Below are positions 4,777 through 64,000 of a stretch of 64,000 nucleotides of DNA, piece after piece. Within the stretch, counting starts at the first letter, position 1. The number at the start of each line of letters is the position of its first letter. The notes below the pieces were generated by a model. It saw only the letters and a program-made list of their open reading frames with translations, did not search any database and had not been told where the DNA came from. A program made the translations under genes and the position numbers. The stretch comes from Escherichia coli (lineage in GTDB: Bacteria; Pseudomonadota; Gammaproteobacteria; Enterobacterales; Enterobacteriaceae), in assembly GCF_051903065.1 (NCBI RefSeq), contig NZ_CP178439.1; one strand, given 5' to 3'.

Positions 4777-5649
4777 TTACTTGGCTTTCAATGTTTTTTC
4801 TGGGAAGCCTTTTTTACCGTATTCACCGGTAAAGAGGTAATAATCTTTTCCGTTGATGGAGGCTGCAACACCCCCTGGAGTTGTTGTATTTGGGCTATCA
4901 GAACGGAAAATGATACCCGAAAAATCAGCGCTTGTTTCGTTTCCTTTAAATGGGATGAACACATAACGAATTACAGCGTAATCACCAGCGGGAAGGTTTA
5001 GCTGAGGAATTTCGGTTCCTGTTGCGGGGCGAATCGCCTGAAAGCTGTACATTGAATCTGTAGGGAAAACATCAGCATCAGGCTTAGAGGGCAGATCACA
5101 GGTACTCCATTTATTGACGACTGCCATATCAATTTTACATGTGGCCAGAGCTGCTTTCTGTTTTTCAGGGTTGTATCCAAATGAGGCCTGAGTTGCTTTT
5201 GTATGCTCAAAAACATACTTAGCTCCTTCACGTACCAAACTTTCATCATTGTAAGGCAATTTTTTTGGATTGGGGACGAACACTAGGTATTGATTGACCT
5301 GGATGTATTCGGCGTCAGAAGAACTGTACAAAGAGCCGAGGCTCATGATCCCAAAACCTTTTAGACCGCCTGTTACGTAGCCCATCGAACTATTGATGAG
5401 ATACTTAGAAAGAAAGTTGTCGGCATCCCCTCCAGGAGTAACCTCTTGCTCCTTAAAATTAACGTCGAAACCAGCAAACGAATAGGCATTCTTGGCGACA
5501 GAATCATTTGCTTTAGCATGCCAGTACTGGCCGTGACTGTACGCATTCAGAGCGGTGCCTGGCGTAGTGCCGGTGTCACCGGCACAACCCGATAGGGAAA
5601 AACCAATGACGACAGAAGAGACCAGAGATACTAAACGTAAAAGTTTCAT
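4777..5649 (-). CDS. Putative lipoprotein, function unknown
   Basis: 290-aa ORF; signal peptide with lipobox-like LSGC (LVSSVVIGFSLSGCAGD); no recognised catalytic motif. Confidence 0.6.
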   Translation of the reverse strand: MKLLRLVSLVSSVVIGFSLSGCAGDTGTTPGTALNAYSHGQYWHAKANDSVAKNAYSFAGFDVNFKEQEVTPGGDADNFLSKYLINSSMGYVTGGLKGFGIMSLGSLYSSSDAEYIQVNQYLVFVPNPKKLPYNDESLVREGAKYVFEHTKATQASFGYNPEKQKAALATCKIDMAVVNKWSTCDLPSKPDADVFPTDSMYSFQAIRPATGTEIPQLNLPAGDYAVIRYVFIPFKGNETSADFSGIIFRSDSPNTTTPGGVAASINGKDYYLFTGEYGKKGFPEKTLKAK

Positions 5650-15126: not shown

Positions 15127-15348
15127 ATGACTCAGATAAAAACTTACCGTGTAGAACATGAAAAAGTCGGTGCGATGCATAAAGTCCGTATTTTCGGACG
15201 TGTTGGTGAAGTTATAAGCAATGATAGCCCTCAGGAAAGAATCTTCCGCGAAGTCACTATAGCGGAGGGTAATAGCCAGCAGGCTGCGTTACTTGTAGAT
15301 AACTACATACAGCGTCTTGAGAATAATGGCTTCACGACTGAAGCATAA
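15127..15348 (+). CDS. Small hypothetical protein (73 aa)
   Basis: ATG start with AAGGAG upstream; flanked by hairpin elements E5 and E6. Confidence 0.5.
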   Translation: MTQIKTYRVEHEKVGAMHKVRIFGRVGEVISNDSPQERIFREVTIAEGNSQQAALLVDNYIQRLENNGFTTEA

Positions 15349-15354
15349 ATGTTG

Positions 15355-15377
15355 AGGGCCCCCGGGCCCTCTTTCTT
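15355..15377 (+). terminator. Intergenic element E6
   Basis: GAGGGCCC-CC-GGGCCCTC perfect hairpin followed by TTTCTT. Confidence 0.55.
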
Positions 15378-15461
15378 AAATTCTGCGTTGTGGGTTTCTC
15401 CCTGTCTTCTGCACCGCAGAAGGCATTGAGAAACTCACAATGCCAGATAAGAGAGATCATC

Positions 15462-16694
15462 ATGACTTATGCATCCCCGGCTCTTCGTCGTAATCCACAG
15501 GAAGTATCTGAACACTTTATTAAACTCGTTCATGCTCGAATTGCTGAAGTGTCTGGCTGGAAGTATATATTCGAAAGAATACCTGCTTTCAAAGACGCTT
15601 GTGCAAAAGCCCCGAGCCAGGTTCCTTGCCCGTTTACTGGCGCAGGGAAATCGAAGTTTCGTTTCCGACAAAAAGACCTTTATACCGGATGTGCGATCCA
15701 TAATGACTTTCCGGTAAATGAGTTTTGCGACGGAATTGATGTTCTGGCGAAATATTATGAATTAAGTAAAACGCAGACTTGCAAAAAGATTCTCTCAGAT
15801 TTTTTCGGGATGGATCTGCATGCTCCGTTAACTGACGCCGACATTGAAAATGAACGACGCTATAAATCAGCAGTTCGTGCCACAGAAACTCTTGACCGAG
15901 AGGAAGTGGCAAAGCGAATGCGAAAACTTGATGTGATGTATCACTATACCGGTGAAATCAAGCCTAATACTCCTGTTGCTTTGTACCTCCGTAATCGTGG
16001 GATCTCCCGCTTACTGAGTCACTTACCAAAGGATTTAGGCTTTAATAACCGGATCTACTATTGGGATAAAGATAAGCAGAAATCGATTATCTATCCGGGA
16101 ATGATTGCGATCTATCGTGACACCCGAGGTCGGCCTCTGACTATTCATAGAACATACGTAGACAAAAATGGTGATAAGGCACCTGTAGAAAATCCAAAGC
16201 TGATGATGAAGCCTCCTGCCGATATGACAGGTGGCTCAATTCAGTTGTTTGACCCTCACTATGATTCAGGTAGTTCGACCTGGACACTGGGAGTGGCTGA
16301 AGGGATCGAGAACGCGCTTTCTGTTGTAGAAGCGACTTCAACACCATGCTGGGCAGCCAGCTCCGCATGGTGCCTTGAAAACGTTACTGTTCCTGATTTT
16401 TTACTGCCTCCGCCGGATGTAAAATCTATAAACTTTTATATCTGGGCGGATAAGGATATTGCTAACTCACAAGGCACTCGTGCCGGTATTGAAGCTGCTC
16501 AGCGACTTCAAAGCCGCATGGTTGAGTTTTTGGCTAAACGATATCCCGCATCAAAGCTGACAATTGAAGTCTTCGAACCAGCACAAGATATTCCTGATGG
16601 GAAAAAGGGTATCGACTGGAACGATGTTCTCCAGTTAACAGGGCAGGATGGATTCCCGATTCACTGGGCTCCTGAATGTCTTAATCAGCTGTAA
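15462..16694 (+). CDS. DNA primase-like protein (zinc-ribbon plus Toprim)
   Basis: N-terminal CPFTGAGKSKFRF..GCAIHNDF resembles the primase-helicase zinc-binding motif; Toprim-like VAEGIENALSV and WADKDIANSQG (DxD); track ORF starts at GTG 15390, ATG 15462 preferred. Confidence 0.5.
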   Translation: MTYASPALRRNPQEVSEHFIKLVHARIAEVSGWKYIFERIPAFKDACAKAPSQVPCPFTGAGKSKFRFRQKDLYTGCAIHNDFPVNEFCDGIDVLAKYYELSKTQTCKKILSDFFGMDLHAPLTDADIENERRYKSAVRATETLDREEVAKRMRKLDVMYHYTGEIKPNTPVALYLRNRGISRLLSHLPKDLGFNNRIYYWDKDKQKSIIYPGMIAIYRDTRGRPLTIHRTYVDKNGDKAPVENPKLMMKPPADMTGGSIQLFDPHYDSGSSTWTLGVAEGIENALSVVEATSTPCWAASSAWCLENVTVPDFLLPPPDVKSINFYIWADKDIANSQGTRAGIEAAQRLQSRMVEFLAKRYPASKLTIEVFEPAQDIPDGKKGIDWNDVLQLTGQDGFPIHWAPECLNQL

Positions 16695-30184: not shown

Positions 30185-32774
<2,590 letters not shown>

Positions 32775-32779
32775 CTGAT

Positions 32780-33379
32780 ATTGAATATGAAATCAGTCAG
32801 GTGCAGCTCGGGCGACGTAAAACAACATACAGTGAGTGCATTGAAAGCCTGATCATTGATGAGACCAGTTCCCGGGAATGGCTATATCATCCATTAATGC
32901 ATGAACTTGAATCTGAACCTCTTCAGGAGTATCGGGGACGGGAGCCTTCAGAGGAAGGGCCTCTTCTTCAGCGCCTTGCTGACTGTAAGATGAAATTGCC
33001 TGATATCCTTCCGGGCAGTCATAACGCGCTAGTCAGGTTACAGCAGGATACGATTGTATGTCTGTGTCGGTTAACGGTTCGGGCTTATGACATCGCTCAG
33101 ACCGATGAATTTCCTTTGTTCCTTCGCTATTTCAGGTTGCACTGCCTGGAAAACAGCGAACATGTCAGTTACGAAAGACTGATCTGCTGGCAGGAAATGA
33201 TTTCAAAAACCCAGGAAGGCCAGTCCTTGACACAAAACGAACTTGAATATCTTCATGAGATTGTCCGCATCGCCTTTTACAATCACCGGCTTAACAATGT
33301 CAGTATTTCAGATGTTAAAAACCATGACACTGGAAAGAAGAGCGGCAGGGTAGAGTCACAAAACTATTCACTTTTATAA
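32780..33379 (+). pseudogene. Zinc-finger protein (CoiA-like?), 3' fragment downstream of IS100
   Basis: In frame with 30308-30820 once IS100 and one copy of the duplication are removed; the track ORF start at 32747 is inside IS100. Confidence 0.5.
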
Positions 33380-52255: not shown

Positions 52256-53497
52256 GTGAATCTACAATCCGGACAAAACATACCGCTTCAGCAATCTGCG
52301 ATCAGGCTGAATCTTCAGTACCCTGCCAAATCCGGCTTTAAAGGCGAACCCGATACCTGCCTCTTCCTGCTTAATGCTCAGGGAAAGGTAACCGGCGATT
52401 CTGACTTTATCTTTTATAATAATCTGTCTTCTCCTGAAGGGGCAGTAAAGCTCGTTACCGGTTCTCAGCAGTCCAGCATTGAGATAGCACTGGATCGTGT
52501 TCCGGCGAACGTCAGTAAGATTGCGATCACCGTTGTCATTGATGGTGAAGATACTATCAGTGGGCTCAGTTTATTGAGCATTCAGGCTCCTGGTATCGCT
52601 GATTTTCAGGCTGAGACTCAGGGCCGCAGTGAGAAAGCAATCATCCTGGGTGAAGTATATCGGCACAATGGCGCCTGGAAGCTTCGTGCGCTCGGGCAGG
52701 GTTTCAACGGTGGTCTTGAGCCTCTGGCCATTAGCTTTGGCGTTGATGTCGCACAGCCAGCTCCGCAGCCAGCAAAGCCTGCTCGTATCAGTCTGGAAAA
52801 GAAACTTGAAACCAGATCTCCGCGCCTCGTAAGCCTCGCTAAAAAAGCCTCGGTCAGTCTCACTAAAAATAAACTGGACACCCTTGAGGCAGCGGTTGCA
52901 TTTGTACTTGACGCATCCGGCTCAATGAGTGGCCAGTTCAGTAAGGGCAACGTTCAGTCTGTGCTGGACCGCATCGCCGTTCTTGCCGCCCAGTTCGACG
53001 ACGACGGTGAAATGGATGTCTGGGGATTTGGAGAGAAGCACAAGAAGTATCCAAACGTCACACTGGACAACCTGGACACATATATTCAGTCCATTCGCGG
53101 GTCTGGAAAGCGTTCAGCCTGGGAGAACCTGCCGGGACTTGGTGGGACAAACAATGAGCCCCCTGTGATGGAAGAAATTGTCGACTACTTTAAGGACTCG
53201 AAAATCCCGGTATATGTTGTATTTATTACCGATGGCGGGATCAGCAAGACCCGGGCGATTAAAGATGCAATCCGGCGTTCTGCCAACTACCCCATCTTCT
53301 GGAAGTTTGTCGGCCTGGGTGGTTCAAGCTACGGTATCCTCAAAAATCTGGATGACTTTACTGACCGCCGGGTTGATAACACCCACTTCTTTGCCATGGA
53401 TGATTTCGGTTCGATCAGCGATGAAAAGTTATATGATAATTTACTGGAAGAATTCAGACCGTGGATCGATGAAACAAAAAGGTTAGGCATCCTGTAA
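52256..53497 (+). CDS. terF: TerF (TerD-like N-terminal domain plus C-terminal vWA-like domain)
   Basis: GTG start; N-terminal TerD-like region ([10 protein letters not shown]); C-terminal [11 protein letters not shown] and FITDGG vWA motifs; 413 aa. Confidence 0.75.
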
Positions 53498-53524
53498 TAC
53501 GCACAGTTTTCGCATGGTTAAAGG

Positions 53525-53560
53525 AGCTCTACAGCAGCTTAATACTGTAGAGCCTTTGTT
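53525..53560 (+). terminator. Hairpin terminator after terF
   Basis: GCTCTACAG-cagcttaata-CTGTAGAGC followed by CTTTGTT. Confidence 0.5.
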
Positions 53561-54059
53561 CACTGGAAATCGTACAGGGAGGAGCATATGGACCGCATCA
53601 AGTACCTGAAATGGATAGCTGAAGAATCACCAACTGATGATGAAATCGACAACTACGATAGTATCATTAGTCGGGGCGCAGAAAGGGCCGAGAAGGTTCA
53701 GTTGTCTTTAAGACGTTAATATACGGGAGTTTAAATGTTCGCAGAAATCAAAGATAATTATTCGTTAGGTGGATAAAGAAAGGTTGCCATTACCAGCTTT
53801 CGACGAGTCGAAAATAAAAACCTTATTTATAGTGACAGGGAGTATGAGCTGACGCTTGCCAATGGAACAATAATTAAAAATGTACTTAGAAAAGAAGAGT
53901 GGGAACTGTTAGAAAGCAATTCAATTAAGGTTATATTATAACGAAAATATATTTACAGTTTTGGATAGGTTTCAAACGAGTCCGGACATTTGTACCTGAA
54001 GTATCTGACATTACAGTTAAGTGACGATTATGCCAGCACGTCTGTTGCTGGCAGCTTAG

Positions 54060-54341
54060 CTATCGGTCTAAAAGCTGATCCATTAATAATTCTTCGTAAA
54101 GCCCAGAGGTATCGGGCTTTATTACAATATCCGTTATTTCGAAGCGTTCAAGTACAAATTGCAGATATTCCGGAGTAACGTAGTAGGGATCAGGTTCAGC
54201 CAGATTAGTATAGAGTGGGTCTTCTGCTGCATTAATGTCATAATCAATGCACATATGAAACCACTGCAAAGGTGGATCCCAGCCTAACATCACCTGAACA
54301 ATTCCCTGATTGCTTTTCACCTCATACCAGTGCTGGCTCAT
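54060..54341 (-). CDS. Small hypothetical protein (93 aa)
   Basis: ORF convergent with the ter operon; no recognised motif. Confidence 0.4.
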   Translation of the reverse strand: MSQHWYEVKSNQGIVQVMLGWDPPLQWFHMCIDYDINAAEDPLYTNLAEPDPYYVTPEYLQFVLERFEITDIVIKPDTSGLYEELLMDQLLDR

Positions 54342-54390
54342 ACTTAGTCCTTAAGAAAATTTGTCATCGGAAAATAACACGAAGCCTGCA

Positions 54391-54582
54391 TCATCGAGGC
54401 GCATAACCTTCTTCCCTTAACGCCTGTTGTAATTTATCAACTGCGCTTTTCATTACCCAGGCTTCTTCGTCACTCACAGCACAACCACGTAGATCGCTCC
54501 AGCTCAGACGTTTAACAAATTGAGCAAGGGCCATAGTTTCGTTCTCATCAAGCCGCAAACTCAGTGTCTCAATACCTTCCAC
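54391..54582 (-). CDS. Small hypothetical protein (63 aa)
   Basis: Immediately upstream of the 93-aa ORF on the same strand; possible two-gene module. Confidence 0.35.
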   Translation of the reverse strand: MEGIETLSLRLDENETMALAQFVKRLSWSDLRGCAVSDEEAWVMKSAVDKLQQALREEGYAPR

Positions 54583-54805
54583 TATCTAACCTCCCTTATA
54601 ATGAAAAATGGCGCTTTACTTCTGACCAGATGCCGAAGCCTTGAATGCAGCCGGAACTGTCGTTGTTTCTACTTTACAGAAATGGAATTAAAAAGTGGTG
54701 ATGCTGTCAGCGCCAGTGATATAAGACGGTAATTCGCCATTTGGATTGTCCGCTCCACCCAACATGTTGTTTCCTTAAGGTTCTCACACCAGAAAGGACA
54801 TCAAC

Positions 54806-56775
<1,970 letters not shown>

Positions 56776-56813
56776 CGAAAGTATTTAGCGGGCATGAAAA
56801 TGGCAAATAACGG

Positions 56814-57179
56814 TCAAACATCGTGGCGTTGACAATGCTGGGCACGTTTCTTTTCCAGCCGGGGTTTAAGCCAGAGCTGAAACTCATTCAACTTCTCAGC
56901 AGCCAAAACCGCTTCAACGGGGAAAACTTTATATTTACCCTGTTGCTGAGGTTCACCCAGCCATCGCCTGATGGCTCCGTCAGTCCATAAACGAGTCTCT
57001 TTTAGCCTAGTTACAGTGACCCATTTTCTGGACCATTCATCAAATTGTCGCTGGCGATCCCGATAACGTTGTTCTTCCTGCTGCCGAAGCCACTCGCGAT
57101 CAACAGCAAATTTTCGGTATCCAACAAAGAGCCCTTGTACTTTGGCCATGTCATATTCCGGTTGCTTAGAGTTACTCAT
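56814..57179 (-). CDS. Hypothetical protein, C-terminus altered by the IS21-like insertion
   Basis: The last 21 nt including the stop codon lie inside the IS right end; without the IS the ORF would end ..KRAQHHHFLIPFL. Confidence 0.5.
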   Translation of the reverse strand: MSNSKQPEYDMAKVQGLFVGYRKFAVDREWLRQQEEQRYRDRQRQFDEWSRKWVTVTRLKETRLWTDGAIRRWLGEPQQQGKYKVFPVEAVLAAEKLNEFQLWLKPRLEKKRAQHCQRHDV

Positions 57180-57482
57180 TCAACCAAAACCTAAACGTCG
57201 ATACAAACTCTGTTTCATAACCAGGGTTTTATCCTTACCGCGACAGTAAGTAACAGGGGCTGCATAAACCGGTCATTTAGTCCGTTATGCAAAAATTATT
57301 GAGGATCCGGGCTGTTAAACTGTTCTTCCTCTTTCGCTTCCGGTGAAAAGGGGAGGTGTCACCCTGCGAGCCCGTGTAGTGAAAGGGATTCGTCGTAATA
57401 CAGGCCAAAGGCTAACATGACCGCAAAGGACGCCCGGGCGACCGGATACCTGCCGGGTTGTGCGATGTAAAATCCGGAAGCA

Positions 57483-57914
57483 GTGATAACACAAACAGGC
57501 CCCTACAGCGTAAGGATTGTGATGGACGATAAAGAGCAGTTTACGAATCTTGTGGCAAAGCATGCCTCCGGACTCACCGAAGAGCAGCTGGCCGGGTACG
57601 ATGCCTGTTCCCTGGATGGTGAATGCGTCACGCCTTCATACGAGGTTTTCCGGGGGTATCGTACCCGCCACACACTGGATGAATTTCTGGAGATGGCCAT
57701 ATCGCTGAATGCCATCCACCCGGATGAATATTTAACGGATATGCTGCTGAAGCCTCATGAGGTGATCGGCGCTCTGGCCGATGAAGGCGACCAGCTGAAC
57801 AACGCCACCCCGGTTTATTTCTTTCCGGATACCGGCGTCTATGCAGCGGCCGTTAGTGAAACCCGGGTGCTCGATGCCTGGCTTTGCTGGCCATGCTACC
57901 CGGCGAACTGGTAA
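57483..57914 (+). CDS. Hypothetical protein (143 aa)
   Basis: ORF with ATG start; no recognised motif. Confidence 0.45.
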   Translation: MITQTGPYSVRIVMDDKEQFTNLVAKHASGLTEEQLAGYDACSLDGECVTPSYEVFRGYRTRHTLDEFLEMAISLNAIHPDEYLTDMLLKPHEVIGALADEGDQLNNATPVYFFPDTGVYAAAVSETRVLDAWLCWPCYPANW

Positions 57915-57982
57915 CGCGGCCGTTGGAATTGCACCGGCCGGATACGAATTTAACCGACCCCGTGGCGGGAAGGCTATCAGAG

Positions 57983-58235
57983 TTGCATGTCCTCATCCCT
58001 CAAGCCCCCTGCCAGGCCCCAACGTGCTGTCAGGCTTCGCCTGATTCCCGATCTGCGCCGATACTTCAGCCGATAACTTTTTGTTTTCTTTTTATTTTCT
58101 TCCCATTTCCTCAAAAATCGCGGGCGGCGTGGACAGGGCACCATTGCCGCATGTGGGGTCTTAATAAGGGCAGGGTGGTCAGTTTTGCTCGATGCCAGGG
58201 GTAGGCCCTCCCCTTCATGGGATGAGGACATGCAA
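57983..58235. repeat. Non-coding element of about 253 bp bounded by 17-bp perfect inverted repeats
   Basis: TTGCATGTCCTCATCCC (57983-57999) and GGGATGAGGACATGCAA (58219-58235); interior is GC-rich with T-rich stretches and no credible ORF. Confidence 0.5.
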
Positions 58236-58386
58236 GTAAGCTAACTATCTGAAATGACGAAGGTTCATTTGGTGAATGTCGCTTCATATTAATGTTGTGT
58301 CACTTATGATCGTATGTAGCTGGTTGCAAAGAGGAGCGATGAGACAATAAAGTTGTATCGCTAACAAGATTTATGCTGCCACATAG

Positions 58387-58490
58387 TAACAGCCTAAAAG
58401 TTGTACGCCCTATTTAACAGCTTTTAGGCTGTTAATTTGATATTACAGCTTTTAGGGTGTATGTTTAGGAAACAGCCTGCAAGGTGTATC
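58387..58490. promoter_or_regulatory. Four imperfect palindromic repeats (ACAGC-N6-GSTGT) upstream of hipB, candidate operators
   Basis: AACAGCCTAAAAG, AACAGCTTTTAGGCTGTT, TACAGCTTTTAGGGTGTA, AACAGCCTGCAAGGTGTA within 100 bp ending 25 bp before the hipB start. Confidence 0.5.
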
Positions 58491-58514
58491 AGAGGAAACT
58501 ACTGAGGCCAGCTT

Positions 58515-58811
58515 ATGATCAATAATGATTACCCGTTAAACACGCTCAACCAGCTGCGTCCCTTGCTCATTGGTTTTCGCAAGGCGAATGGCCTGACGCA
58601 AAAAGACCTGTCCGAAAGGTTAGGCGTCACTCAACAGACATACTCACGTCTGGAAGCCAACCCTGCCAGTGCGAGCATTGAACGGCTATTCAAGGTGTTT
58701 TCCATCCTGGGCGTAAAAATCAGCTTCTCCTCGGCAACCACCTCTTCAGAGAGGAAGCAGACGGAAGAAATGCTTAAATCAAACTCACCTGCACGACAGG
58801 AGGATTGGTAA
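58515..58811 (+). CDS. hipB: HipB-like XRE-family helix-turn-helix antitoxin
   Basis: Helix-turn-helix segment GLTQKDLSERLGVTQQTYSRLE; 98 aa; stop 4 nt before the hipA start. Confidence 0.8.
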   Translation: MINNDYPLNTLNQLRPLLIGFRKANGLTQKDLSERLGVTQQTYSRLEANPASASIERLFKVFSILGVKISFSSATTSSERKQTEEMLKSNSPARQEDW

Positions 58812-58815
58812 CGAT

Positions 58816-60141
58816 ATGAGCCGGAAACAGCAACGTCTGGTAATTTGGATGAACGGCATCAAAGTCGGGTACTGGGAAAAAAGCAAAGGGGTAGACAGCT
58901 TAGAATACCTTCCTGAATGGGTTGCTGACGAACAGGGAAGGCCGCTGTCATTGTCCCTTCCTTTTACTCCCGGGAACCAGGTCTGGCGTGGAAATGTGGT
59001 ACGTGACTATTTTGATAATTTACTGCCGGACAGCGAAGGCATACGCAGACGTCTGGCAATGCGTTACAAGGCCGATAGCCTGGAGCCTTTTGATCTGCTG
59101 ACGGAGCTGGGAAAAGACTGCGTGGGCGCGATACAGCTGCTTCATGACGGAGATGAACCCACTGATTTATATTCCGTGAAGTATCACCCGCTTACTGAAT
59201 CAGAAATTGCGGCAACTTTGCGTAATACCACGGAGACATTGCTACCGGGCAGGCCAGAAGATAACGACGACTTACGTTTATCTATTGCCGGTGCTCAGGA
59301 GAAAACAGCCCTACTGTGGCATGAAGATCGGTGGTGTATGCCGGAGGGTAATACACCAACGACGCATATATTCAAGCTACCGCTCGGACTTGTGGGGAAC
59401 ATGAAAGCCGACATGAGCTCGTCGGTTGAAAATGAATGGCTCTGCTCGGTACTTCTCGGCCAGTACGGGCTCCCCGTGGCAAGAACGCAGATTGCTCACT
59501 TTGAAGATCAGAAAGCGCTGGTGGTAGAACGTTTTGACCGAAAATGGTCAGGAGACGGACAATGGATCATTCGTTTACCCCAGGAGGATATGTGTCAGGC
59601 CCTGGGCGTTTCGCCATTACGAAAATATCAGGCGGACGGCGGGCCAGGTATATCGGAAATTATGGAGGTTCTGAGTAATTCAGACCGTGCTGAGCGTGAC
59701 AAAGCGCAGTTTTTTATGACGCAGATAATTTTCTGGATGATGGCCGCAACAGATGGCCACGCTAAAAATTTCAGTATTTCTATTGGGCCACAGGGACGTT
59801 ATCACCTTACACCAAACTATGATGTGTTGTCGGCATGGCCGGTGATCGGTCATGGGAACAATCAGATATCCTGGCAGAAGTGCAAACTGGCGATGGCCGT
59901 ACGTGGCAGTAGCAACTATTACCAGATATATCGAATACAACGACGCCACTGGATCAGGCATGGTGAGATAACCGGCCTGAGTAAACAGCAGACAGAGGCG
60001 ATGATAGAGGAAATCATCGCCAGAACCCCGGGTGTCATTGAACGTGTTAGCGGGCTTCTTCCGGACCAGTTCCCCCAGCAGCTTGCGGAAAGTATTTTTG
60101 ATGGAATGAGGCAGCAATGCAGGCGCCTGGCTGAGAAATGA
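58816..60141 (+). CDS. hipA: HipA-family Ser/Thr kinase toxin
   Basis: 441 aa; conserved HipA blocks (FFDNLLPDS, SIAGAQEKTALL, ERFDR, ATDGHAKNFS) matching E. coli HipA along its length. Confidence 0.9.
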   Translation: MSRKQQRLVIWMNGIKVGYWEKSKGVDSLEYLPEWVADEQGRPLSLSLPFTPGNQVWRGNVVRDYFDNLLPDSEGIRRRLAMRYKADSLEPFDLLTELGKDCVGAIQLLHDGDEPTDLYSVKYHPLTESEIAATLRNTTETLLPGRPEDNDDLRLSIAGAQEKTALLWHEDRWCMPEGNTPTTHIFKLPLGLVGNMKADMSSSVENEWLCSVLLGQYGLPVARTQIAHFEDQKALVVERFDRKWSGDGQWIIRLPQEDMCQALGVSPLRKYQADGGPGISEIMEVLSNSDRAERDKAQFFMTQIIFWMMAATDGHAKNFSISIGPQGRYHLTPNYDVLSAWPVIGHGNNQISWQKCKLAMAVRGSSNYYQIYRIQRRHWIRHGEITGLSKQQTEAMIEEIIARTPGVIERVSGLLPDQFPQQLAESIFDGMRQQCRRLAEK

Positions 60142-60201
60142 CAGCCGCAATTTATAGTGTGCATGTTTTCAGAATAGCTGATGTAAGCGTGAGGATTCAG
60201 T

Positions 60202-60408
60202 ATGACTGAAGAACAAAAAAGAATAGAGCGGGCTATTGAGTTGGCTTGTCGTTACGGCGGAACCGATGAAATGCATCATCTGCAATGGGTCGTGGATCAG
60301 ATGGTAAGAGAACTTGCTGGAGAACGTTATGCACAGATTGTAGCTGATGCCACCAGCGGAGAAGATGGGCCTGATACTTACAAATGGAGTGTTGGGATCG
60401 CGCCTTAA
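60202..60408 (+). CDS. Small hypothetical protein (68 aa)
   Basis: Short ORF with ATG start downstream of hipA. Confidence 0.35.
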   Translation: MTEEQKRIERAIELACRYGGTDEMHHLQWVVDQMVRELAGERYAQIVADATSGEDGPDTYKWSVGIAP

Positions 60409-60509
60409 CAGCTGTCGGTCTGGGGGTGAAAACGTATTCTTCATTCAGCGAATTCCCAGGCTTCACATTAAGACTAAAGCGGCGGCCGCAGTAACGTAAG
60501 AGAAAATAA

Positions 60510-60920
60510 ATGGCTATTTTAGCAATCATTGCAGTTATCGCCCTGGGTGGGTACGCCTACGGATTTATTAAAACCCGTGAGCTGAGCGCTTTGCGTAAAG
60601 AAATGAAACTATACGTGGATCGCATGGAAGCGGCGGAGCTGGACTTACACGCAATCAGAAGTGTAGCGGAGCACCGGTTGCACGGTGCAGGTAAACAGTT
60701 TGCCGACCTTTACAGCCGTATCGACGGTGCAACTGTGACGCTGACACCCGAAGATCAGCTGTTACTGGCAACGATGCCATTTAATATTCAGGATGTAGAA
60801 GACATCGTAAACGAGCGCGGTCCAAAGACAATTAGCGGCCGTCCATTCTGGGAAGTTGAGCCAGGCCCGCATGATTATGAATATGGCCCGCAATATCCGT
60901 ATTTCCCAGACCAGCGCTAG
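60510..60920 (+). CDS. Hypothetical protein with N-terminal transmembrane anchor
   Basis: N-terminus MAILAIIAVIALGGYAYGFI; 136 aa; ends 12 nt before the HNH gene. Confidence 0.5.
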   Translation: MAILAIIAVIALGGYAYGFIKTRELSALRKEMKLYVDRMEAAELDLHAIRSVAEHRLHGAGKQFADLYSRIDGATVTLTPEDQLLLATMPFNIQDVEDIVNERGPKTISGRPFWEVEPGPHDYEYGPQYPYFPDQR

Positions 60921-60932
60921 GAAGAGATCAAG

Positions 60933-61748
60933 ATGAGAGAGCCAAGACCACGCCATACCTTGCAGGTCATTCGTGTACCTTCTCTGGAGGTTCAGGACCT
61001 GGGGCTGACCAGCTTTGATAGCTGGCTTGACGAGCACGGGTATGACAAAACGAATGCCAGAAATAACCGTACCATCTGGGCGAGAGAAGGCGGATGGCAT
61101 CTGAAACGTTGCAGAAATCTTGAAACTGGCACGGACGATTTCTGGTTTATCGCTTTCGATGGTAAAGGCGGGAAGATTTACCCGCTGAAAACCCAAAGAG
61201 ACTACCGGGCTGCATATCGTAAGCTGGAAGCAGAAGGTTATGCGCCTGCGGTCATCGAGCAAATGACCACAGGCGCAGCATATAACCTGGCCTATCCACG
61301 TTCCACCCTAAAACAAGCTGAGACGGCCACCAGCGAGCCAATTCGGAAACCTGACGTAGATATCCAGGGTGAGCACTGCGAGCGCGTAGTGACGCAACGT
61401 AGTGGCGTGGCACAGGGTAAATTCAAAGCTCTGCTCATCGAGAATTTCGCAGGCCGTTGTGCGGTAACCGGTTGGGTTAATGGAGGTGTCCTGGATGCGG
61501 CACACATTGAACATGGAACCCGGTACAATCCGTCTAATGGCATCCTGATGACTCCAACAATGCATGCGCTGTTTGATGCCGATCTTATGGGCATAGATCC
61601 GGCCACCCTGACCGTTCATTTTAAGCCAGGCATTGAGGTGGGCGAGCTGTTTGAAGGCCGTAAAATCACACCGCTGGTGTACGATCTGGACTTAGAGCGG
61701 CTGGCCGTACGCTGGGCAGAATACCAGGGCCTTGCTCAGGACCAATGA
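60933..61748 (+). CDS. HNH endonuclease-domain protein (HNH_2-like)
   Basis: C-terminal CAVTGW..LDAAHIEH..SNGILMTPTMHALFDADLMGI matches the HNH nuclease signature; 271 aa. Confidence 0.65.
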   Translation: MREPRPRHTLQVIRVPSLEVQDLGLTSFDSWLDEHGYDKTNARNNRTIWAREGGWHLKRCRNLETGTDDFWFIAFDGKGGKIYPLKTQRDYRAAYRKLEAEGYAPAVIEQMTTGAAYNLAYPRSTLKQAETATSEPIRKPDVDIQGEHCERVVTQRSGVAQGKFKALLIENFAGRCAVTGWVNGGVLDAAHIEHGTRYNPSNGILMTPTMHALFDADLMGIDPATLTVHFKPGIEVGELFEGRKITPLVYDLDLERLAVRWAEYQGLAQDQ

Positions 61749-62001
61749 AGGGTGACAGCCAGGTTGTGCCTAAACCTGGCAGTAAAACCTGCATGCCACA
61801 AACCTTTAAATTCTGACTCAAGAGCCTGGCACAAGATAAAAGCGAAATGAAAAGGTTAAAACCGGTGCACCAGACCTCTTAGGTTTAATACCTGAGCCAG
61901 TATACTGGCAGTCTCAGGTAAGTGGGTATCATACACTTCAGAAATATCCACACCGAGATAACCGCAACAGTTAAAGAGCTAAAAAGGACGGTTTTAATTT
62001 T

Positions 62002-62427
62002 ATGAATAAAACAGCTTTAATTATGATTCTGGGAATCCTCGGATGTGGTAAAGCATTTGCAGCCACTGAATTACAGCTCCAGCAAAAACGCGTTATGCAT
62101 TTCTGTGCCAATGCCAGCCTTCCGTTGTTGATTGCCGGTACAACTTATGCGAATACGTCTGACAATGGACGACCAGAAAAAGAAAGAGTGGCAATCCTGA
62201 AAAATTCAGTTGCAAGCTCGACAGCTTATAAAATGGCATCTCCCGGAGTTCAGATGGCCATGATGAGCGTGGTGGAAGATATTGCCGATCCGAAAGAATT
62301 AGCTCTACATCAAAAAGAAGTTAGACGTCTTGGGGCTAGTTATCTTTCCGACAGCGGTGTTTCATGGGCTTCAAAAACTGTTTCACCATTTACAGCCTGG
62401 TGTAACTTTAACCGTTTAGAAAGTTAA
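62002..62427 (+). CDS. Putative secreted protein or lipoprotein
   Basis: Signal peptide MNKTALIMILGILGCGKAFAA; 141 aa. Confidence 0.5.
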   Translation: MNKTALIMILGILGCGKAFAATELQLQQKRVMHFCANASLPLLIAGTTYANTSDNGRPEKERVAILKNSVASSTAYKMASPGVQMAMMSVVEDIADPKELALHQKEVRRLGASYLSDSGVSWASKTVSPFTAWCNFNRLES

Positions 62428-62453
62428 GGCTGGCAAGGCGGTTTCTGTTCAGG

Positions 62454-62464
62454 AAAGTTACTTT
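62454..62464. repeat. AAAGTWACTTT palindromic motif copy 11
   Basis: GGAAAGTTACTTTCC (15-bp palindrome), intergenic; a related inverted pair GTAACTTT..AAAGTTA lies at 62402-62427. Confidence 0.6.
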
Positions 62465-62975
62465 CCGTGCGGGGACCGTAAGATACAGATAAAGCTTAAG
62501 GCCTTTGAATTTTTGGAAAGCATTTGAAAATTTCATTGCGCTTGTCTGATATGAAACAGCCCCTGCATTTCTGCAAAGGCTGAAAGAGTGTGTACGGACT
62601 TTGGAAGGAGTGATGATATACGCCTGAGCCATCCCATCACCGCAGACAGGGTAATTAACCCTGACTAAAGCTTTCACCTATTCCGTCGCTCGCAAGCGGC
62701 TTTCGCACACTAACGAAGGTATGGCCTTTCGTCGGTGTTAAATTTTTCAAACTTTGCTTACTTTGTCAAGGAAGGTGACCGCAGTAGCAGGCACAACTAC
62801 TTTAATCTGTATGAATAATAAGGTAGAACCGGCCAGTGAATGAATGCTTACCCTGAAATCAGGCGGACAACCTTCAGGAATATTGATAGCAAGACTGAAT
62901 CTCTCGCTGCGGCGATAAACATTTCGCCATAACCCTGAACGAGAGTGGTTCATCCATCATATACAGGAGCGTTAC

Positions 62976-63284
62976 ATGCGCAAATTTAAGTACATAATCT
63001 GTCACCAGTGCGAAGGCCACGGGACCATGGAAAACCCGGCCTTTGAAAATGGATTCACCCAATCAGAAATGGCTGAGTGGGAGCCAGAAATGCGTGAAAA
63101 GTATTTTGCCGGAGCATTTGATGTTCGCTGTAACGTTTGTGCCGGTGACGGTAAGCTCAGCGTACCAAACGTAGCGGCTATGTCTTTTTCAGAACGACGG
63201 GTTCTGGCAGCACGGCGGCGTGATGAGCGTCTTCAGGCTGCTGATGAACGGCTGTCCCGCCAGGAACGAGCAATGGGGTACTGA
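62976..63284 (+). CDS. Small zinc-finger protein (CxxCxGxG repeats)
   Basis: CHQCEGHG and CNVCAGDG DnaJ-type zinc-finger motifs; 102 aa; directly upstream of the second HNH gene. Confidence 0.5.
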   Translation: MRKFKYIICHQCEGHGTMENPAFENGFTQSEMAEWEPEMREKYFAGAFDVRCNVCAGDGKLSVPNVAAMSFSERRVLAARRRDERLQAADERLSRQERAMGY

Positions 63285-63299
63285 GGTGCTACAGCAAAG

Positions 63300-64000
63300 A
63301 TGAAAATGACGAAGCCAAAACCGGTAAGCCGGATGAAAAGACCGTTTATTAGTGAGCTTGCAGAGCTGGGTTTATCGGGTGAAATTCTTTCAATTCGAAC
63401 TGACGGCATGCAGGGGACGCTCATACCCGATCTTACCGCAGGGGTGAGTGAAGCAGGCCGTGTGAAAACCGGCAACTGGGTAATCTCTGACAAGAGAACC
63501 TTCGACCATGTCGTTCTGTGTGTTGAAAGACAAGATGAGAACCATGATGTGTACGTAGGTAAATTCATCCAGTTACATGTAGCCGCTAATAAGAGCCTTA
63601 AGATCGTCGAAATGGGCGATGTGAAACTGGTGGCCATAACCAGCTCGATTCCTACCACTTTTAATGGTGGGATAAAGAGATACAAAGGGGTTACGTATGT
63701 GTCACTTTCCCAAACAGCTCAAACCACTATCGACTTCCCGAAGCGTATCTACAAAGAGGGCCAGGAATGTACTTCTGTCACCAGTCCTGACCAAGGTCCT
63801 TTCGCCCGGGATGTTAGGTTGAATTGCTACGGGCGATGTGTTGTCACCGGCGTAAGGTCCCCCTGGCGTACTGAGGCCGCGCACTTAACGCCACGTCATG
63901 AAGAAGGCATTCCCGACGTAACGAACGGAATTTTACTTCGCCGTGATATCCATACACTGTTCGACAATGACCATTGCGCCATAAACCCTGACACTATGAA
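63300..64000 (+). CDS. HNH endonuclease-domain protein, paralog-like (3' end outside window)
   Basis: Open frame from ATG 63300 to the window end, absent from the ORF track; contains CVVTGV..EAAHL..TNGILLRRDIHTLFDNDH, similar to the C-terminus of the 60933-61748 protein. Confidence 0.6.
   Translation, partial: MKMTKPKPVSRMKRPFISELAELGLSGEILSIRTDGMQGTLIPDLTAGVSEAGRVKTGNWVISDKRTFDHVVLCVERQDENHDVYVGKFIQLHVAANKSLKIVEMGDVKLVAITSSIPTTFNGGIKRYKGVTYVSLSQTAQTTIDFPKRIYKEGQECTSVTSPDQGPFARDVRLNCYGRCVVTGVRSPWRTEAAHLTPRHEEGIPDVTNGILLRRDIHTLFDNDHCAINPDTM

Follow-up and report, generated by a model that had tools for sequence, protein, structure and literature searches.

Two paralogous HNH_2 proteins with different N-terminal domains, encoded by IncHI2 plasmids, as candidate Type IV-like restriction nucleases

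A sensor-plus-nuclease pattern has been described for modification-dependent (Type IV) restriction enzymes, and the sensor and nuclease modules are interchangeable; fusions of PUA and HNH domains restrict T4gt and T4 (PMC6765204; PMC12191111). In the VcaM4I / TspA15I / CmeDI group of Type IV enzymes the sensor is an EVE domain, and VcaM4I depends on 5-hydroxymethylcytosine (5hmC) or 5-methylcytosine (5mC). Mutagenesis of VcaM4I found that H224, D250 and D254 are needed for activity and that N241 is structural, and its HNH domain is toxic when the linker is missing (PMC7897488). TagI and ScoA3IV (Sco5333) represent the SRA-HNH Type IV endonucleases (PDB 6ghs) and are toxic to Dcm-positive E. 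coli (PMC6765204). The 5hmC-specific PD-T4-3 comes from E. coli O157:H7 (PDB 9u75), and the ScoMcrA-type endonucleases (NCBIfam NF045808) join a sulfur-binding domain (SBD) to HNH and depend on phosphorothioate. The repertoire of sensors in modification-dependent nucleases is expected to be incomplete (PMC12191111), and such domains have been turned into epigenetic mapping tools, AbaSI being an example (PMC4081097). Here we analyze two paralogous genes, HNH1 and HNH2, found at the end of a 64,000-nucleotide stretch of Escherichia coli DNA (contig NZ_CP178439.1; hereafter the window) that was identified as IncHI2 plasmid. Plasmids of the IncHI2 group rank among the major vehicles of multidrug resistance in Salmonella, E. 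coli, and Enterobacter. We hold with moderate confidence, higher for HNH2 and lower for HNH1, that the two products are autonomous, single-polypeptide Type IV-like restriction nucleases.

HNH1 (WP_001572439) occupies positions 60933..61748 on the plus strand and encodes a two-domain protein of 271 amino acids (aa), annotated as “HNH endonuclease signature motif containing protein” by the Prokaryotic Genome Annotation Pipeline (PGAP). HNH2 (WP_000784387) lies on the same strand at 63300..64000, where the window holds the first 233 of its 285 codons and the gene runs 157 nt further. The full second gene was obtained from the identical plasmid pMTY18780-1 (NZ_AP023198, locus L001), which served as reference for the 3′ end of HNH2 and for the PGAP annotation. 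Read from positions 15201-16058 of that locus, HNH2 encodes 285 aa and would end at the window-equivalent position 64157. An earlier note on this DNA had described a common C-terminal HNH signature attached to unrelated N-terminal domains, and both parts of that description were borne out. The Pfam HNH_2 model (PF13391) matches HNH1 at aa 176-222 (E = 1.5e-6) and the full-length HNH2 at aa 180-229 (E = 3.3e-12), and it matches all 14 sequences of the HNH2 family alignment. The signatures read CAVTG..AAH191..N202GIL..H211ALFD215 in HNH1 and CVVTG..AAH195..N209GIL..H218TLFD222 in HNH2. BLASTP aligned HNH1 aa 145-266 with HNH2 aa 153-279 at 31% identity (E = 3e-12), defining a common C-terminal module of ~130 aa. 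The N-terminal halves gave no BLASTP alignment with each other and a profile-profile (hhalign) probability of 0.2%.

The only solved structure reached by the family profiles was VcaM4I (PDB 6yex), in the HNH region, with E values of 1e-5 for the HNH2 family and 7e-7 (6.7e-7) for the HNH1 family. Single-sequence searches of HNH1 and HNH2 against the PDB returned no match, and Foldseek against AFDB50 found only “HNH nuclease domain-containing” proteins and gained no fold label. In the HMMER alignment, H191/N202/H211/D215 of HNH1 and H195/N209/H218/D222 of HNH2 take the positions of H224/N241/D250/D254 in VcaM4I, and these residues, which stand for the general-base His, the structural Asn, and the metal ligands of a beta-beta-alpha-metal active site, are invariant in both family alignments, so HNH1 and HNH2 are predicted to be catalytically competent. 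In the window, the C-terminal module of HNH1 spans 61365..61730 (plus strand; aa 145-266) with its HNH_2 core at 61458-61598, and the HNH_2 core of HNH2 spans 63837..63986 (plus strand; aa 180-229) with predicted catalytic H195 at 63882-63884. The likeness to VcaM4I in sequence is confined to the HNH region, identity in the structural alignment is 11-18%, and both H211 of HNH1 and H218 of HNH2 are the canonical His where VcaM4I has D250. Judged by sequence, HNH1 and HNH2 are true HNH_2 nucleases: their active-site residues are intact, and it is the N-terminal domain that has been swapped. Among phage genomes, only distant copies of the HNH module were found (11 records).

The N-terminal part of HNH2 (aa ~15-138; 63342..63713, plus strand) is a beta-barrel domain predicted to be like the PUA superfamily (EVE/YTH/ASCH/SRA class), and it is the candidate reader of modified bases. 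In a table of comparisons with known proteins, the values were 7.1 for VcaM4I, 6.7 for TagI, and 5.9 for the 5hmC-specific defence nuclease PD-T4-3, followed by 4.3-5.4 for EVE proteins (PH1033; THYN1 bound to 5mC DNA), YTH domains, the m5C-binding McrB N-terminal domain, and ASCH. By sequence and fold, VcaM4I, TagI, and PD-T4-3 appear to be the closest characterized relatives, and all are modification-dependent (Type IV) enzymes. There are differences from each. The Pfam EVE model did not match HNH2, and neither HNH1 nor HNH2 matched the Pfam SRA domain that TagI and ScoA3IV carry; the nuclease of PD-T4-3 is of the GIY-YIG type and not HNH, and it has no sequence similarity to the pair. A profile of the HNH2 N-terminal domain run against 5.8 billion proteins retrieved only fragments of the same family and no fusions to other effectors, and the HNH2 family is narrow (19 clusters). 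Judging from these comparisons, HNH2 would work like the PUA-HNH Type IV endonucleases and probably belongs with them. A stand-alone ASCH-domain gene (PUA superfamily) was also seen at 5212-5622 of locus L005, a Leclercia chromosome, 380 nt upstream of an HNH2 orthologue near smpB; this may be a coincidence or a second reader.

HNH1 is laid out in the same way, with an N-terminal candidate sensor domain, a linker, and the C-terminal HNH_2 module. Its N-terminal domain (aa 1-123; 60933..61301, plus strand) carries the conserved motifs RHTLQ...GGWHLK...FW(F/L)I and is a candidate sensor of nucleic acid or its modification; as far as tested, it has no resemblance to the PUA superfamily. A profile of this domain searched against 1.84 billion representative proteins found only 19 clusters. 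In all seven complete proteins that were aligned (271-540 aa) the domain adjoins HNH_2; some of them have a long Lys-rich N-terminal extension, and one has two HNH domains. The other hits were mostly fragments of 44-135 aa, and two hits were weak. A domain that so constantly accompanies HNH_2 behaves, on sequence evidence, as a dedicated sensor module would. In the other direction, C-terminal modules of the HNH1 type were found at 52-60% identity after different N-terminal regions (protein lengths 254-472 aa), which argues that the nuclease and N-terminal parts are modular. With no PUA likeness as far as tested, HNH1 is not placed with the PUA-HNH enzymes here; it is more aptly seen as an enzyme that would work in the Type IV manner through an undescribed sensor.

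The ScoMcrA-type enzymes have an HNH_2-type catalytic domain in common with the pair, and a phosphorothioate reader of that type was considered and ruled out for both proteins. The NF045808 model matched the HNH region only (E = 0.002-0.025), leaving the sulfur-binding domain unmatched, and its scores of 13.7 and 17.2 bits are far below the curated cut-off of 180.

In the mechanism that we favour, which follows the modular pattern of the known modification-dependent enzymes, the N-terminal domain would recognize some property of foreign DNA, the likeliest being a modified base, and recognition would release or position the C-terminal HNH_2 (beta-beta-alpha-metal) domain to cut nearby. By analogy to VcaM4I and TagI, the HNH domain would probably act as a homodimer and make nearby double-strand cuts (PMC7897488). 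A methyltransferase would not be required; the annotation of the identical plasmid has none in the 12 kb to either side, nor in the 50 kb upstream. The reader of HNH2 would be PUA-like (EVE/YTH/ASCH class) and that of HNH1 a different, undescribed domain; since the N-terminal domains differ, the two proteins should differ in their targets. The earlier note had spoken of two related but differently targeted effectors, and a defence role with two different target specificities is indeed the most likely reading, given the different N-terminal domains and the Type IV relatives. What the sequences show is the architecture, the conservation of the active site, selection, synteny, and the lack of both a methyltransferase and conserved partners; modification dependence, target identity, dimerization, and the role in defence we infer.

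Enterobacteria as a rule methylate their own DNA with Dam and Dcm. With hosts methylated in this way, the targets cannot be N6-methyladenine in GATC or 5mC in CCWGG. The pair would thereby differ from VcaM4I, whose 5mC activity would be self-harming in these Dcm-positive hosts, and from TagI and ScoA3IV, as HNH1 and HNH2 live in Dcm-positive enterobacteria. Phage DNA with hypermodified bases, such as hydroxymethyl- or glucosyl-cytosine, would be a plausible target, and so would foreign methylation patterns on incoming mobile elements. A more far-reaching proposal, which we regard as tentative, is that the ~120-aa N-terminal domain of HNH1 is a previously undescribed sensor of DNA modification or of another non-self feature of DNA. 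Paired with the PUA-like HNH2, such a sensor would provide IncHI plasmids, the globally spread multidrug-resistance IncHI2 lineage included, with a conserved, methyltransferase-free restriction pair of two specificities that shields the host from hypermodified phages or excludes rival mobile elements. If so, HNH1 would extend the modular repertoire of modification-dependent nucleases by a new sensor domain.

Many IncHI2 plasmids of Salmonella, E. coli, and Enterobacter carry the stretch 60100-64000 (3.9 kb) with 100% identity. In all, the stretch matched 1,174 plasmid records, with at least 80% of its length covered in 482, and 370 of its 377 places in complete E. coli genomes were on plasmids. 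The HNH segment is thus present in more than 1,100 sequenced plasmid records. If the two genes encode active Type IV enzymes, they would affect which phages kill plasmid-bearing strains, a matter relevant to phage therapy and plasmid persistence, and which foreign DNA enters these cells. More than 1,000 plasmids already have the genes annotated as HNH endonucleases, and the architecture is known; the main novelty lies in the HNH1 N-terminal domain and in the conserved pairing of HNH genes on a clinically important plasmid family.

Several points weigh against a restriction role. The search of PADLOC-DB v2 suggested by the earlier note returned no defined system for the pair, only the generic models PDLC04132 “HNH” (E = 2e-8 and 7e-4) and PDLC03546 (E = 0.003), and we found no publication on HNH1 or HNH2. 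The N-terminal domain of HNH1 is a sensor candidate by its position only. As described below, the genes are frequently truncated in nature and thus dispensable, which fits an accessory defence function without proving it, and their conservation in the plasmid backbone beside hns is equally compatible with a role in the biology of the plasmid itself.

The order HNH1 ... HNH2 ... hns, the last on the opposite strand, is kept in IncHI2, in a diverged IncHI2-like plasmid, and in other plasmid contigs carrying hha and hns. In one of these (L012) the HNH pair lies a few kb downstream of an integrase-hha-coiA segment, and in IncHI2 the ter cluster and hipBA stand between the two. This recurrent synteny across IncHI-type plasmids indicates that the pair is old IncHI backbone and not, as far as gene order can tell, a recently assembled island. 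The earlier note had proposed a small defence island. The restriction-type relatives and the variability of the locus support the defence part of that proposal, and the backbone synteny, together with the lack of a system defined by PADLOC, makes the word “island” too strong. In the reading favoured here, the pair is an ancestral component of IncHI-type backbones that would work independently of the small genes upstream of it in IncHI2.

The same synteny, with the tandem HNH1-HNH2 set between hha/coiA and hns, can be read to mean that the HNH proteins serve the plasmid's own biology. They would attack rival plasmids or other incoming DNA during conjugation, process DNA in replication, recombination, or transfer, or take part in H-NS/Hha silencing. 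Relatives encoded in integrative or mobilizable elements among small early-type genes (NikA-like, tRNA_anti-like OB) fit this explanation, and one such element (L023) again has a tandem. We nevertheless think it improbable. Single orthologues are found in chromosomes and islands with no plasmid functions nearby, and the closest characterized relatives are all restriction enzymes. An essential role in maintenance or transfer is also unlikely, as HNH2 is truncated in about a third of the IncHI2 records and HNH1 in many, yet most of the plasmids are typed as conjugative. The explanation probably overlaps with the Type IV-like reading at one point, in that a role in competition or exclusion would use the same sensor-nuclease mechanism. 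The tandem in L023 (5094-7623; a mobile-element-like metagenome locus) consists of HNH_2 genes of 264 and 540 aa, the second with an HNH1-type N-terminal domain. It lies among many small open reading frames (ORFs) and adjoins an IS200/IS605 element; tandem HNH_2 paralogues thus seem to recur on mobile elements.

Purifying selection acts on both domains of both genes. The ratio of nonsynonymous to synonymous substitution rates (dN/dS; Nei-Gojobori) was 0.05-0.11 for HNH1 against its orthologues and 0.11 for HNH2 against a 73%-identical orthologue, and values of 0.05-0.15 were obtained for the N- and C-terminal halves alike, with dS saturated. In full-length orthologues at 42-90% identity, the reading frame is preserved and no catalytic residue has been lost. 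Such constraint is hard to reconcile with a third explanation, in which the genes are selfish or decaying nucleases, either relics resembling homing endonucleases or non-specific toxins silenced by H-NS, without current adaptive function. The frequency of truncated copies in the plasmid collection speaks for decay, as do the narrowness of the families (19 clusters for HNH2 and 19 representative clusters for the HNH1 N-terminal domain) and the shortened HNH2 homologue of L012-like plasmids. The position of the genes is fixed and syntenic, however, and unlike the intron, intein, or homing-site contexts, and HNH_2 is the restriction-type subfamily of HNH and not the homing type. We consider this explanation very unlikely.

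As for the truncations themselves, HNH2 was found at 90% identity or more on 966 plasmid records, with at least 80% of the gene present in at most 678. Shortened forms of HNH2 recur in which the protein begins at aa 73 or 159 or stops at aa 186, recurrent HNH1 fragments cover aa 1-82, 1-120, or 1-143, and most of the matching plasmids are still typed as conjugative. In three contigs with hha and hns (L012-L014; 7380-8090 / 1689-2399), the HNH2 orthologue is a protein of 236 aa (P0014, present in at least 1000 contigs) from which the first ~70 residues of the PUA-like domain are missing, and its sensor is thus probably incomplete. In the p179-mcr lineage of IncHI2 (L020, NZ_CP091561, 1781-6384; window 62428-63775), codon ~11 of ZnF102, the gene preceding HNH2, is joined to HNH2 codon ~159, through a deletion that took ZnF102 and the first 158 codons of HNH2. 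The neighbouring gap (equivalent to window 62428-62975) holds a two-gene module encoding a UvrD/GajB-like helicase of 679 aa (PADLOC GajB, E = 1e-51) and a protein of 328 aa in which only a CoiA_N domain was matched. Gabija and Hachiman were ruled out for this pair, as the partner is the CoiA_N protein and not GajA or HamA; the pair may be an uncharacterized defence system, matching no catalogued one. Replacement of one module by another in this way is, judging from the sequences, the behaviour of an accessory, exchangeable locus.

The earlier note had also treated the small genes upstream of each HNH gene as partners. In the window, HNH1 is preceded by orf68 (WP_000134171; 60202..60408, plus strand), an ORF call for a small soluble protein, and by orf136 (WP_000985911; 60510..60920, plus strand), a protein of 136 aa. 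The latter has a single N-terminal transmembrane helix (Kyte-Doolittle mean of 2.23 over 19 residues at aa 2-20), in agreement with the membrane anchor proposed for it. HNH2 is preceded by ZnF102 (WP_001224687; 62976..63284, plus strand), where the proposed CxxCxGxG zinc-finger protein was likewise found, with two DnaJ-type zinc-knuckle motifs (CHQCEGHG and CNVCAGDG) in 102 aa. The ORFs listed in the earlier note were correct, and two genes had been left out of it. One is orf141 (WP_001043843; 62002..62427, plus strand), which lies between the two HNH units and encodes a predicted lipoprotein of 141 aa with a signal peptide and an ILGC lipobox, as seen in sequence and hydropathy. The other is a 67-aa gene (orf67) just 3′ of HNH2 and outside the window.

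Only 12 nt separate orf136 from HNH1 and 15 nt separate ZnF102 from HNH2, and on these short gaps co-transcription of each couple in IncHI2 is likely. One could then propose that each HNH protein and the small genes upstream of it form a two- or three-gene module in the style of toxin-antitoxin or abortive-infection systems, with the small proteins as antitoxin, immunity factor, membrane sensor, or zinc-finger regulator. A protective partner is conceivable, as the free HNH domain can be toxic in VcaM4I without its linker (PMC7897488). To follow the small genes, loci were retrieved for orthologues at 41-90% identity. They comprised plasmid contigs with the IncHI markers hha, coiA, and hns (L002, L012-L017, L027), a diverged IncHI2-like plasmid (L025), a ter locus (L004), the Leclercia chromosome (L005), and an integrase-bounded island by a Lamassu-like locus (L008); the first tblastn scan for partners covered 13 distinct places among 16 loci. 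In tblastn searches with orf68, orf136, orf141, ZnF102, and orf67, no homologue was found beside diverged HNH1 or HNH2 orthologues except in L025/L026. In L025, orf136 survives as an anchorless fragment (aa 69-126) and ZnF102 as a C-terminal half with no intact ORF, and yet HNH1 (90% identical) and HNH2 (73%) are both full length and under purifying selection.

The small genes also have histories of their own. Homologues of ZnF102 at 46-49% identity occur on ~585 other records of large conjugative plasmids, and in the two that were inspected (IncFIB/IncHI1B and IncU by typing) the downstream gene was unrelated to HNH2 and no HNH gene was a neighbour. Searches of plasmids with orf136 by tblastn found only copies of at least 90% identity and none outside IncHI2. 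Scans of all seven genes with PADLOC, NCBIfam, and PHROGs yielded only generic HNH families or families of unknown function, with no meaningful family match for the small genes, and the five of them gave no match at all in PADLOC-DB v2. On this comparative evidence, ZnF102 is an independent gene, orf136 an orphan specific to IncHI2, and orf68 a mere neighbour, none of them being a conserved partner. Functional dependence of the HNH genes on the upstream small genes is thus not supported by the sequence comparisons, and we rate a partner module as very unlikely, slightly more so than the selfish or decaying nucleases considered above. Annotating the small upstream genes as components of a defence system should therefore be avoided. 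The Type IV-like reading, in which each HNH protein acts on its own, asks for no such partner.

Elsewhere, HNH1 and HNH2 orthologues stand alone. Solitary copies were found after terF (L004), in the Leclercia chromosome near smpB (L005), and in the integrase-bounded island by the Lamassu-like (LmuB_C) locus (L008). In the first of these, a metagenome contig (1-6855), the HNH2 orthologue is 41% identical and follows terF at a distance of 150 nt, neither hipBA nor any other gene coming between them. The contig may have kept part of an IncHI2-like gene order, or the association with ter may be genuine. Other orthologues have no ter genes nearby, and on this ground a functional connection with the ter operon was rejected. 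The same question arises for hipBA, which the earlier note had correctly placed next to the locus; hipB (58515-58811) and hipA (58816-60141) lie directly upstream of it in that order. A functional link was set aside here too, as the adjacency is kept only in plasmids of the IncHI2 type. In the window as a whole, the end of the Tra2 transfer region is followed by Tus, an integrase, hha, a split coiA-family gene, the TerY-P triad, and the ter operon, and then by hipBA and the HNH locus.

Between orf141 and ZnF102 lie 548 bp free of genes (62428-62975). Of all sigma70-like promoter matches in the locus, the best falls in this gap, on the minus strand at about 62769->62742, with agreement at 10 of 12 positions. 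The same strand carries, some 160 nt further downstream, a hairpin (62582->62557) whose 11-bp stem is followed by a T-rich tail. The scan of the locus for promoters and terminators gave no enrichment over shuffled sequences, and an Rfam scan of the 7-kb locus found no match. The RNA of ~190 nt between promoter and hairpin (about 62550-62740, minus strand) has a folding z of -2.5 and likewise no Rfam match; by these features the minus-strand transcript could be a candidate small RNA.

Two insertion sequences (IS) of the IS21 family were also noted. One lies at 54806-56775 (istA 54806-55978, istB 55975-56775), between the small genes downstream of terF and an ORF of 121 aa, and is absent from pMTY18780-1. 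The region that holds it (53400-58600) was covered to at least 80% in at most 39 of the 5,000 best-scoring plasmid records. The other, IS100, interrupts the coiA-family competence gene of the backbone, which is annotated as two flanking pieces in the identical plasmid and falls at window positions 30338-33379 by correspondence with L029.

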